From assembly GCA_965279035.1 (NCBI GenBank), contig CBDIHM010000003.1:1-64000 (forward strand): DNA of 64,000 nucleotides. Direction: 5' to 3'. The stretch comes from Bacteroidia bacterium. Lineage in GTDB: Bacteria; Bacteroidota; Bacteroidia; M30B66. This document shows, piece by piece, positions 58,356-64,000 of this stretch. Position numbers and translations under genes: made by a program. Every line of letters begins with the position of its first letter. Position 1 is the stretch's first letter. The notes beneath the pieces are model-generated. The model was given only the letters and a program-made list of their open reading frames with translations. It made no database searches and had not been told where the DNA came from.

Positions 58356-59209
58356 ATGATTAATGAATCAGATAAGGAGAACAAGCACTAGACAAATAGA
58401 AGAGTGATAGGTAACTATCAATTAGGTATATTCTTAAAATTTTTATTTTATTAAAGTTAAGACTTTAGGATAGGGAACATTTGGAAAAGTAAAACTTGCT
58501 ATTCACCTTAAATCAAAGGAAAAGGTTGCTATAAAAATACTAGAAAAAGAAAAAATAGTTGAAGTGGCAGACGTTGAAAGAGTTTCAAGAGAAATACATA
58601 TATTAAAACTTATAAGACACAAACATGTTATTTAATTATATGAGGTATTTTTAAGATTAAAAAATAATAAAGATAATTGAAACTCCAAAACACATTTTTA
58701 TGGTCATGGAATTTGCTGAAGAAGGAGAATTTTTCGATTACATCGTTAGAAATCAAAAATTATAAGAAGTTGAAGCATCTAAATTTTATTAAGAAATTTT
58801 ATCTGGAATAGAATACTTACACAAATTATGTATTGTTCATAGGGACTTAAAGCCAGAAAATCTATTGGTAGATTTTAGTAATTCAATAAAAATTAGCGAT
58901 TTTGGTCTAGGTAATACATATAAGAGAGGTGAATAACTCAAGACGGCATGTGGTAGTCCATGTTATGCTGCTCCTGAAATGATTAAAGGTTAAAAATATG
59001 ACTGTCTTATGGTCGACATTTGGAGTTCAGGTGTTATATTATTTGCAGCAATATGCGGCTATTTACCTTTTGAGGATTAGAATCAATCAATACTATACAA
59101 AAAAATAATGAATGGAGAATACTCCATCCCTAAATTTGTATCAGCAGATGGATAAAATTTCATTAAGGCAGTACTCACAACTGATCCAGCAAAAAGAATC
59201 ACTATTGAT
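58356..59209 (+). CDS. SNF1/AMPK-related (CAMKL) kinase, truncated at the junction
   Basis: [56 protein letters not shown]; the expected ..HPWF and C-terminal region are missing. Confidence 0.93.
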
Positions 59210-59217
59210 TACAGCAG
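59210..59217 (+). other. Composition breakpoint, ciliate to green-alga-like DNA; sequence TACAGCAG
   Basis: Abrupt change from very AT-rich to ~50% GC within a few bases, in mid-CDS; the 8-mer fits TAYAGYNR. Confidence 0.9.
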
Positions 59218-59642
59218 GTCTGCCCTTGTCCTGAGGAGACCAACCTCCCATGGGTCAGTGTGCAGGCCAGCTGCAAGCATGAGCGCGCTCTCAGACCCAG
59301 TGAGACTCATAACTCTGAGAAAGAGTCCCCATAGTGCGATTGATTATTGTTCTGAACCCTTGGCCATGGCACAGAAGAAAGTTGGCTGAGCAATGAGTGC
59401 ATTCATGCCCCTTTTGTATGTGCTGGCAACTGCAGCTTCCAAGCAGGTCAGCCAATCTTCTCATCCTGATAGCCTTTGGCAGCGGCTTGAAGGAGAGCAG
59501 AATCACATCTCACTCTTGCAGAATTCCGCATCTGCTGGAGAGCCGCAGCCTCCAGTTAGTGGCCGTGTTACTTAAAGCTTGGCTCCTGTGATTAAGTTGG
59601 ACACTGATGTGAAGCTCTCTCCATCTTTTCTGTGCCCTGCAG

Positions 59643-62600: not shown

Positions 62601-63586
62601 TTTCACTCCGAGCTCTCACTTTCCATGCCTGGCAGTGATGCAACAGGTTGCGCCTCCTCCAGAAGGCATGGGTTGCATGCAATACTTTGAACTGTGACCC
62701 TTACAGCGCATCACAATCCTGGGTGCCTGCTCCCTTCAGCAAGTGTTGTGGAGTGGAATTTCCATGCGTGCTGCAAATTCTTTGTGATGGTCTCGCGGCA
62801 GGGAACTTTGATCTGTGAGCCTTAAAGTGATGCTTCGTGAACTTGGCTGCCAGGTTCCTTCAGCGAGTGTTGAGGAGTGGCAATCGCGTGCGGGCTGCAG
62901 AGTGCTATAGATTCCAGGCTGCCACACTGTCTGAATTCGGGCATTGTGTGCATGCTGCAGGTTCTTTGTGTTCTGGCTGCTGTGCCTGCTGTCGCACCAG
63001 GTGGCCATCAACCTGTTCAGGCTCATCGGCGCCATCGGCCGCTCGGTCGTCATCGCCTTCAACCTGGCCTGGGTCGTCTTCATCCTCATCATGCTCCTCT
63101 GCGGATACACCCTCGTCAAACGTAAATACCCCTCACCTTGGTCCCTGGGTTATCACTAGTCCGCATTTTGCGTGTTTCTGTACTCAGACTTGACGTTGCT
63201 GTGAGTGCACAGCAAAGTCCCTCCAACAAGCATGCCCTGGTCATGCATCAAAAATGCATGATGAAAAGTATATTTGCTTTGAATGTCCTGCCCTGCTCTG
63301 CCGCTCTGTATTCTGTGTTTGGATTGTCCTCACTGCAAAGTCACCTGCTGTATTTGTAGCTACAGAGCATGCCCTGGAGACGCATGATGCGCTGATTGCG
63401 AGTGAGGAAGTGTTGGCCACAAAGCAACTCCTTTCAGGTGTTCTGTTGGCGATCAATGCGAAATCAACTGAAGTTGTGGCTTGATGTGTTGTGCAGCGGA
63501 CATCCCGCCGTGGTACGCGGGCGGCTACTGGGCGCTGCCGCTGCAGTGGCTCGTGAACGCCATCATCAACAACGAGTTCCAGGATG
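59643..63586 (+). CDS. Internal part (NBD1-TMD1 linker and TMD1) of a plant/green-algal full-size ABCG (PDR) transporter; exons 59643-59806, 60018-60047, 60493-60670, 61100-61118, 61327-61403, 62149-62261, 62961-63121, 63497-63586
   Basis: Spliced: QYWADTAKPYDFVPVAQFA...REGVLMLRHAFTYKFRTAQ...VLFFALVQMLFDGFSEMSMLIESLPDFYKQRDNLFYPAWAFALPVTLLRIPYSLVES...LFRLIGAIGRS...IPPWYAGGYWALPLQWLVNAIINNEF. All junctions GT/CAG and in phase; introns ~210-750 nt. Confidence 0.93.
60666..61030 (+). repeat. Degenerate ~130-bp tandem repeat (about 3 copies), each starting with a copy of the splice donor
   Basis: GCTG|GTGAGCGC at 60671, 60799 and 60937; shared aagccYat.tggcata, tgcaaagttctc and tgttgaaagat.gggatc.ttttgctg blocks. 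Confidence 0.85.
61440..62075 (+). repeat. Highly degenerate ~110-130-bp intronic minisatellite
   Basis: Recurring cagagtgtca..Ytgcca and ..agctgtcca motifs, about 5 times. Confidence 0.6.
62516..62540 (+). repeat. Short interstitial telomere-like repeat (TTTAGGG/TTAGGG variants)
   Basis: tgagg tttaggg cttaggg ttggg; weaker gttcagggtgcagggtttagag at ~62081-62101. Confidence 0.6.
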
Positions 63587-64000
63587 GTGAGCAATCCACT
63601 TTATTGCATCTTTTGGGCTGTCTTTCAGGCAGGTGCATGTTTCGCAAATGATTAAACGAAGGCTCTTTAGATCAAAAGTTCCATCTGGCTATCCATCCAC
63701 GCAGCGGCTTTCCAATTTTATCTGTCTAGCAGGGTGTTTTTGTTCATCCTGGGATTTTGCACGCTCTTGACAGAAACAGACCTCTCAAGACCATTCTGAG
63801 ACAGCGGCTCGGGCATTCCCTATATGCTAAATCATTATGCAATCAGCTTCCTCTCCAAATTACTTGACGGCCGGGCGCCAAAGCCGTACAGACCATTAGA
63901 AATGTGTGGCCACAATTGACCTAATTTTTTTTTCGACCACATTGGGGCCTTCAGAATTGCCTGTGAGCGAGGTTCAAATATTTTTCATTTTATTTTTTCA

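Follow-up and report, generated by a model that had tools for sequence, protein, structure and literature searches.

A perfect match to the Paramecium IES-end consensus at a very probably artefactual joint between a kinase gene and Coccomyxa DNA

Near the right end of the 64,000-nucleotide stretch of DNA analysed here (the window), the plus strand carries parts of two genes that meet at positions 59211/59212. The left-hand one (58356..59211) comprises the 5' portion of a SNF1/AMPK-like Ser/Thr kinase gene from Paramecium, with exons at 58356-58425, 58457-58644 and 58673-59211 that are separated by introns of 31 nt (58426-58456) and 28 nt (58645-58672). The Pkinase domain was detected on the two kinase exons that were scanned, with E values of 1e-51 (exon 58673-59209, read with the ciliate code) and 4e-14. 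The best named match is a 620-amino-acid protein of Paramecium octaurelia (P0007) with 83% identity to the kinase; a protein annotated as 'SNF1-related protein kinase (macronuclear) [Paramecium tetraurelia strain d4-2]' (P0026) is 69% identical, and the named relatives also include JGI entries termed 'AMPK catalytic alpha subunit'. The class assignment thus rests on the Pkinase domain in combination with nearest named relatives that are SNF1-related or AMPK alpha proteins. Six in-frame TAA/TAG codons are present in exon 3, four of which align to glutamine in P0007. The kinase domain is collinear with that of P0007 and P0026 from the N-terminus (MINESDKEN... vs MNESDKEN...) to ...KRITID; in contrast to these proteins, however, the gene in the assembly breaks off where the kinase domain ends. 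Its reading stops after ...RITID and the letters TA, with which a TAA (Gln) codon begins, a point at which P0007 reads ...KRITVEQMKAHPWFNLY. The C-terminal part of the kinase (about 350 amino acids), including its regulatory part, lies outside the window and is found on the true chromosome (record 6 of run X1; see below).

The right-hand gene (59212..64000, plus strand) is a nuclear gene fragment from Coccomyxa (Trebouxiophyceae) that encodes part of a PDR-type ABCG transporter, as judged from its ABC2_membrane domain, its match to the protein P0001 and its identity to the contigs X5 and L001 described below. The fragment extends from mid-intron to mid-intron and corresponds approximately to amino acids 349-609 of P0001, a 'putative pleiotropic drug resistance protein 3 [Coccomyxa subellipsoidea C-169]', that is, to the linker and the first membrane domain. 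Exons derived from tblastn HSPs lie at 59640-59807, ~60013-60057, ~60491-60673, ~61100-61120, 61326-61403, ~62148-62262, ~62958-63125 and ~63497-63587 on the plus strand; their ends are approximate, as hand-set ends gave no single clean frame, and the introns of this approximate model measure about 200-750 nt. The ABC2_membrane domain was recognized on four of the six exon-bearing ORFs that were scanned, three times at E values of 3e-9 to 2e-5 and a fourth time weakly (E 0.043); the ORF at 62935-63159 is the only one above the Pfam gathering score. One of the algal exons is 98% identical to P0001, and a protein search with this exon, covering 461 candidates, yielded five matches at E <= 0.001; the three that are named are all from Coccomyxa. 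The order of the exons is collinear with P0001, P0004 and P0005, and the ABC2_membrane domain together with this collinearity with annotated PDR proteins identifies the gene as a PDR-type ABCG transporter. Two of the exon HSPs are 100% identical to P0001. The window holds only a fragment of this Coccomyxa PDR transporter: in the alga, the N-terminal ATPase domain is encoded leftward of the joint (L001), and the second half of the transporter is located beyond the window.

An AT-rich low-complexity island made of ATT-type repeats (62360..62535, plus strand) lies inside an intron of the algal gene; its tandem repeats span 62377-62476, and after it comes a short TTTAGGG-like stretch with a telomere-like match at 62514-62527 (2 mismatches). 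We considered positions 62360-62520 as a second ciliate piece that would render the contig a mosaic, but rejected this since the algal contig from run X5 passes through the island ungapped. The island is native to the alga.

At the boundary (59211..59212, strandless) the two DNAs abut bluntly, and the parental sequences have no letters in common there. The letters at 59210-59217 are TACAGCAG (plus strand), a composite of a ciliate TA (59210-59211), which forms letters 1-2 of the kinase TAA codon, and the CAGCAG at 59212-59217, which is algal intron sequence; past the kinase exon the letters thus read TA/CAGCAGG. The joint is positioned in the middle of an exon on the ciliate side and in the middle of an intron on the algal side. 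The GC content determined in 1-kb windows is 0.20-0.34 over positions 1-59000 and 0.46-0.51 over 59001-64000; in 100-nt steps it is 0.33 at 59101 and reaches 0.58 at 59201, and overall it shifts from 0.26 to 0.49 across the joint. This rough doubling of the GC content had been noticed in the first-pass annotation of the window, along with the passage from ...RITID to TA and CAGCAG, the growth of the introns (31 and 28 nt in the kinase gene versus about 200-750 nt in the algal gene), the plant-type PDR transporter and its green-algal origin, and each of these observations holds. The annotation further described the kinase gene as being cut by algal DNA. The abrupt switch is real, but an insertion is not visible in the window: 59211/59212 is the sole joint visible, and algal DNA reaches the end of the window at 64000. 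Two ORFs cross the joint (59156-59389 and 59209-59334), and neither of them matched any Pfam family; we consider a reading frame fused over the joint to be meaningless. A search for telomere healing with a Paramecium-type repeat pattern (<=2 mismatches) gave two matches in the window, at 42494 and 62514, a number also attained by 3 of 100 shuffled sequences. Neither match is near the joint, and we rejected a chromosome end at this position.

We compared the region 55001-64000 of the window with the Logan contigs, rather than the raw reads, of four sequencing runs (X1, X5, X11 and X13). X1 is a run of the source sample and holds 0.98 of 112 sampled words; the share is 0.98 and not 1.00 in each of the four runs of that sample, a value that would fit the absence of a few words spanning the joint. 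The ciliate side is represented in X1 by record 6 (18,368 nt; depth 418.1), which has 0 differences over 56444-59211 and then continues for another 15,600 nt. Past 59211, this contig reads TAA-ATG-AGA-TTG-CAT-CCT-TGG (QMRLHPWF), the intact remainder of the kinase; its loose end AATGAGATTGCATCCTTGGTTTAATTTATA, together with the preceding TA, translates into Q-M-R-L-H-P-W-F-N-L. The suggestion that the next kinase codon would be TAA (Gln) is hence borne out. Run X11, which stems from a related Paramecium (about 2-3% differences), likewise contains an intact kinase gene with the same continuation (AATGAGATTACATCCATGGTTCAATTTATA). The ciliate contigs of both runs fit the window up to 59211 and then proceed with AATGAG..., so that the kinase remainder directly follows 59211. 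On the real Paramecium chromosome, the kinase gene is uninterrupted.

The algal side behaves in a corresponding manner. Record 7 of X1 (5412 nt; depth 25.6) is algal and fits 59212-63087, and, as judged by record length and orientation, the remaining 1536 nt extend leftward from 59212; the algal records 7 and 8 of this run, with depths of 25.6-28.6, show 0 differences over 59212-63087. In the mine-drainage metagenome X5, record 25 (8434 nt) fits 59212-63993 with 7 differences (99.85% identity); beyond the window match it has a further 1536 nt on the left (...AGGCATTGACCCTGGTGCGACGCCAAGGAC) and 2116 nt on the right. The public contig locus L001, which is independent of X5, is 99.85% identical to window positions 59212-61241 (3 mismatches in 2030), and a blastn comparison of window 58000-64000 with L001 gave a match only from 59212 on, leaving the ciliate side unmatched. 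The 2000 nt of L001 to the left of the joint have a GC content of 0.53 and contain exons that belong upstream in this PDR gene (amino acids 211-349 of P0001); the joint consequently falls within an intron of the alga. Locus L001 and the algal contigs from X1 and X5 all fit from 59212 onward, where the preceding letters are ...CCAAGGAC, and in all three (in X1 by record length and orientation) the algal DNA continues to the left of 59212, whereas integrated foreign DNA would be expected to end at the joint. The PDR transporter gene is uninterrupted on the real algal chromosome. Additional joints within the algal part (59657 to 61359 in X5; 61410 to 63520 in X1) were read as short paralogous PDR matches, with a shorter side of 22-35 letters.

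At the joint, the depth of the X1 contigs drops 16-fold from 418 to 25.6. We searched for a contig bridging the joint in X1, X5, X11 and X13, and found none among the records listed. No algal contig was present among the pieces listed for X11, whose depth is 0 in 10 of the 15 bins covering 59501-64000 and <=1.03 in three more. The first-pass annotation had favored an assembly or library chimera and had named four outcomes by which it could be recognized: no spanning read or a single one, a depth step at the joint, an intact kinase gene on another contig, and collinearity of the algal piece with an algal chromosome on both sides. All four were obtained from Logan and public contigs, not from raw reads. 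With its depth step, its separately continuing parents and no bridge among the contig records listed, the joint at 59211/59212 is very probably an artefact in which Paramecium and Coccomyxa DNA from the same sample were falsely joined.

The feature that runs against an artefact is the octamer. Paramecium IESs are bounded by TA, have ends conforming to TAYAGYNR and are excised by PiggyMac (PMC3464196; PMC6143343), and TACAGCAG fits this consensus in 8 of 8 positions, as the annotation had claimed. For a random blunt joint, the chance of TA followed by YAGYNR is about 0.119 x 0.0078 = 9e-4 (about 1 in 1000). This calculation has to be read with the fact in mind that the match was noticed post hoc, and that it concerns a consensus called weak, and insufficient for IES recognition, in the account of PMC3464196. 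The annotation had offered as its alternative an excisable, IES-like algal insert in the germline. On this reading, at least 4.8 kb of Coccomyxa DNA would reside at a TA of the kinase gene in the micronucleus and be removed in the manner of an IES while the macronucleus develops; the macronuclear kinase gene would then be intact, and the joint would have been assembled from rare micronuclear reads. The likeness to Paramecium IESs comprises the TA at the joint, the consensus-fitting octamer and the site within a coding exon. The macronuclear form contains a single TA exactly at the joint (GAT TAA ATG), as IES excision would leave it; this point carries no weight, however, since TA makes up 12% of ciliate positions and a random joint behind any of them would leave a macronuclear TA as well. 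Coccomyxa is among the algae found in Paramecium bursaria, according to PMC8005025.

Contigs without the joint do not prove cells without the joint. Micronuclear DNA is expected at about 1/200 of the macronuclear depth, and as contigs drop rare variants, a junction at this level would escape them; from the high-depth (macronuclear) form the joint is missing. Nevertheless, the insert would differ from Paramecium IESs in having a single end and in consisting of at least 4.8 kb of an intact, unameliorated algal gene that, in the genome of the alga itself, is collinear past the joint. A left TA occupies 59210-59211, but the right TA end is absent from the window. Neither a second joint (...TA followed by AATGAGATTGCATCC, the kinase remainder) nor a return to the kinase was found in 59212-64000, and the algal contigs extend at least 2.1 kb further. 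The same algal DNA is free in the sample at a depth of 25.6 and collinear on both sides of the joint. The identity of 99.85% to environmental Coccomyxa contigs means that an insert would need to be of extreme recency. Furthermore, 93% of the IESs of P. tetraurelia measure less than 150 bp, and the weakness of the end consensus again speaks against an IES (PMC3464196). We therefore regard an excisable germline insert as unsupported and highly improbable. Equally slight is the chance of a real joint that exists only in the germline micronucleus, or only in a few copies of the macronucleus, after a very recent capture of Coccomyxa nuclear DNA at a TA within the kinase gene; if this were true, germline capture removed by the IES machinery would constitute a hidden route for DNA transfer from alga to ciliate.

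Marginally less remote, though still very unlikely, is a rare somatic event in which a macronuclear chromosome broke and, by ligation, received DNA of Coccomyxa that was being digested or was resident, in a minority of its copies or in a few cells. A Paramecium macronucleus holds roughly 800 copies. If foreign DNA were attached by end-joining, a blunt joint devoid of microhomology would result, and the alga is present in the same sample. However, no bridging contig appears among the records listed despite a ciliate depth of 418, neither telomere addition nor any other healing mark is present near the joint, and such an event is indistinguishable from a chimera ligated in vitro, which is far commoner. 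As improbable as the germline insert is contamination after sequencing, across samples or within the database, with an alga that was never in the ciliate sample. Near-identical Coccomyxa DNA does occur in unrelated environmental runs (mine drainage and, by word share, biocrust and moss), but X1, a run of the source sample, has algal records of its own that match the window without a difference.

A false joint between two DNAs of one sample resembles the known chimeric contigs of a host and its symbiont, prey or contaminant in every essential respect: the abrupt change in composition, the 16-fold depth step without a bridging contig, the separate continuation of both sides in the same run, and genes cut at arbitrary points by a joint without common sequence. 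The only oddity is the chance fit to TAYAGYNR. Coccomyxa was present in the Paramecium sample at about 1/16 of the ciliate word depth, and its DNA very probably became joined end-to-end to macronuclear sequence of Paramecium; this happened either within a library molecule or read that was chimeric or during assembly. As the joint is blunt and without common sequence, a chimeric molecule or read is the probable origin, with a repeat-induced misassembly as a less likely but realistic alternative.

Collectively, the sequence facts at the joint are real, while the insertion biology is not. No insertion took place biologically, and the relevance of the finding is one of assembly housekeeping. The assembly contains a falsely truncated kinase gene model, and the contig needs to be split at 59211/59212. 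In addition, 4.8 kb or more of Coccomyxa sequence is recorded as part of a Paramecium genome, with the risk that it is counted as a horizontal gene transfer or taken for an 'algal-derived' host gene. The locus serves as a cautionary case of how chance can produce a full fit to a consensus that is short and degenerate at a chimeric joint, the letters being supplied here by a TAA codon and by an algal intron rich in CAG.

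The GC content, determined in 1-kb windows, lies at 0.20-0.34 up to position 59,000 versus 0.46-0.51 over 59,001-64,000, and the jump is abrupt in 100-nt steps (from 0.33 at 59,101 to 0.58 at 59,201). At the joint, a GAT codon (59207-59209) is followed by TA (59210-59211) and then by CAGCAGG. Left of it lies a kinase gene that starts with the ATG at 58356 and contains introns of only 31 nt (58426-58456) and 28 nt (58645-58672); the translation of its third exon (58673-59209) begins with IIETPKHIF. Both scanned kinase exons matched Pkinase (E 4e-14 and 1e-51). The gene gives a sensible reading only with the ciliate code; six in-frame TAA/TAG codons are present in exon 3, four of which align to Q in P0007, a 620-aa Paramecium octaurelia protein and the best named relative (83% identity over 179 aa). 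Among the other named matches is, at 69%, the 'SNF1-related protein kinase (macronuclear) [Paramecium tetraurelia strain d4-2]'. The DNA left of the joint is therefore that of a Paramecium.

To the right lie exons that encode a PDR-type ABCG transporter. Four of the six scanned exon-bearing ORFs matched ABC2_membrane (three with E 3e-9 to 2e-5, the fourth weakly with E 0.043); only ORF 62935-63159 passed the Pfam gathering score, and the Pfam scan did not detect this domain in either of the two ORFs crossing the joint. For ORF 60485-60763, five proteins with E <= 0.001 were present among 461 candidates; all three named ones are from the trebouxiophyte Coccomyxa, and the best match (98% identity) is the 'putative pleiotropic drug resistance protein 3 [Coccomyxa subellipsoidea C-169]' (P0001). 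Residues 349-609 of this protein are collinear on 59640-63585 in a tblastn comparison, with two exon HSPs at 100% identity, and the approximate model yields introns of about 200-750 nt. Hence, the descriptive statements of the first-pass annotation on GC content, introns, kinase, transporter and the octamer at the joint were all accurate.

Public runs were searched with 112 words sampled from 58600-59800. X1-X4, four runs that all derive from the same sample (organism A), share 0.98 of these words, other runs 0.08-0.41. We compared the Logan contigs of X1, of the mine-drainage metagenome X5, and of runs X11 and X13 with 55001-64000; organism B is the source of X11, and organism C that of X13. 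An X1 contig (record 6; 18,368 nt, depth 418.1) shows no difference to the window over 56444-59211 and then continues for 15,600 nt unlike it, beginning with AATGAGATTGCATCCTTGGTTTAATTTATA. Read with the preceding TA, this gives TAA ATG AGA TTG CAT CCT TGG TTT AAT TTA (Q M R L H P W F N L), so that the earlier guess of TAA as the next kinase codon proved correct; P0007 has KRITVEQMKAHPWFNLY at the corresponding place. This agreement and the continuation itself therefore show that the source sample carries an intact kinase gene. X11 represents a related Paramecium (15 and 61 differences over 58247-59211 and 55270-58181, respectively) and passes 59211 in the same way (AATGAGATTACATCCATGGTTCAATTTATA); its depth over the algal part (59501-64000) is 0 in 10 of 15 bins and <=1.03 in three more, and no algal contig is among its pieces listed.

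The algal parent likewise extends past the joint. X1 record 7 (5412 nt, depth 25.6) is free of differences over 59212-63087, and its remaining 1536 nt probably lie left of 59212, given an orientation convention that can be checked on record 6. X5 record 25 (8434 nt, depth 23.1) aligns without gaps to 59212-63993 (7 differences), overhanging by 1536 nt leftward (AGGCATTGACCCTGGTGCGACGCCAAGGAC) and 2116 nt rightward; X1 record 8 runs 2745 nt past the window end. At the joint itself, the X1 depth steps exactly from 418 to 25.6 (16-fold), and no contig among the longer records listed for X1, X5, X11 and X13 spans 59211/59212.

When a collection of metagenome contigs was scanned with a 30-base stretch of the window starting at 59212, one match emerged, locus L001 on a 103,784-nt contig, which is 99.85% identical to 59212-61241 (3 mismatches in 2030). 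The 2000 nt left of this match have a GC content of 0.53 and end with CCAAGGAC, as does the loose end of the X5 contig; exons further upstream in this transporter gene occupy positions 410-1704 of L001 (P0001 aa 211-241/281, 278-307 and 307-349), and blastn found no match to 58000-59211. L001 and the X1 and X5 contigs together therefore place the joint mid-intron in the alga and mid-exon in the ciliate, with no letter common to both parents.

With parents that continue separately, a 16-fold depth step and no bridging contig among those listed, this contig end is an ordinary chimera of host and alga, as the first-pass annotation had preferred to read it. Its title had advanced an IES-like algal insert. 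The octamer TACAGCAG agrees with TAYAGYNR at 8 of 8 positions, but its halves are of different parentage: TA belongs to the ciliate TAA codon, CAGCAG to the algal intron. A random blunt joint would give such an octamer with a frequency of 0.119 (TA, ciliate part) x 0.0078 (YAGYNR per position, both strands, algal part), i.e., ~9e-4; the fit is a real coincidence and counts against the artefact reading, but its weight is lowered by its having been noticed only post hoc and by the weakness that PMC3464196 itself ascribes to the consensus. The single TA in the macronuclear form carries no weight, because any joint placed after TA leaves one. If confined to micronuclear DNA, a junction would have only about 1/200 as many copies as the macronuclear sequence (the P. 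tetraurelia ratio) and would be too rare for Logan contigs, which drop rare variants; therefore, the joint is excluded from bulk DNA, not from every molecule. However, this run also contains the identical algal sequence in the form of a free genome; that sequence is collinear past the joint on both sides and practically identical to environmental Coccomyxa, and there is no second insert end. The IES idea is thus not supported, and a germline or rare somatic algal insert, both taken jointly, is very improbable.

Several features of the ciliate part were observed in passing. An X1 contig of depth 13.5 (main form 418) joins 56957 to 57622, nine letters (AAATGTTAA) replacing 664 nt; the ends of this gap are not obviously TA-bounded, and the short form may come from a minor allele or a paralogue of the ciliate DNA, or be a rare variant with a deletion. 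X1 word depth peaks at 55963-55978 (1656-2012) and 56251 (975; surroundings about 420-555), and X1 contigs break at 55930-55990 and 56240-56260, which points to short sequences with further copies in the Paramecium genome. X11 and X13 carry 55001-59211 at roughly 95-98% identity, with many third-position-like differences at distances that are multiples of 3 (e.g., 55134-55182); organisms B and C are sister strains or species of this ciliate.

In the algal part, one intron contains, within 62360-62535, a ~160-nt almost pure A+T island with ATT-type repeats, native to the alga since the X5 contig crosses it without a gap. Directly behind it lies GGTTTAGGGCTTAGGGTTGGG, resembling TTTAGGG, the plant/green-algal telomere repeat motif. 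Two introns hold degenerate tandem repeats (60706-61019 and about 61400-62060), unreported by Tandem Repeats Finder; a ~125-nt unit recurs at 72% identity (blastn), and gtcaagctgcca blocks recur by eye in the second. Behind 63980, an X1 algal contig has 13 additional letters (TTTTTCATTTTAT, one more tandem copy; depth 28.6 of 77.5), either a copy-number difference or an assembly indel error.

A passage of PMC8005025 names Coccomyxa among the reported algae of Paramecium bursaria. The near-identical DNA in the mine-drainage metagenome shows that Coccomyxa of this kind also lives freely. Because the parents share no sequence at the joint, a chimeric molecule or read is somewhat favored over the assembler as origin of the false joint. 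In practical terms, the contig should be trimmed at 59211/59212 and the Coccomyxa DNA in the assembly flagged.
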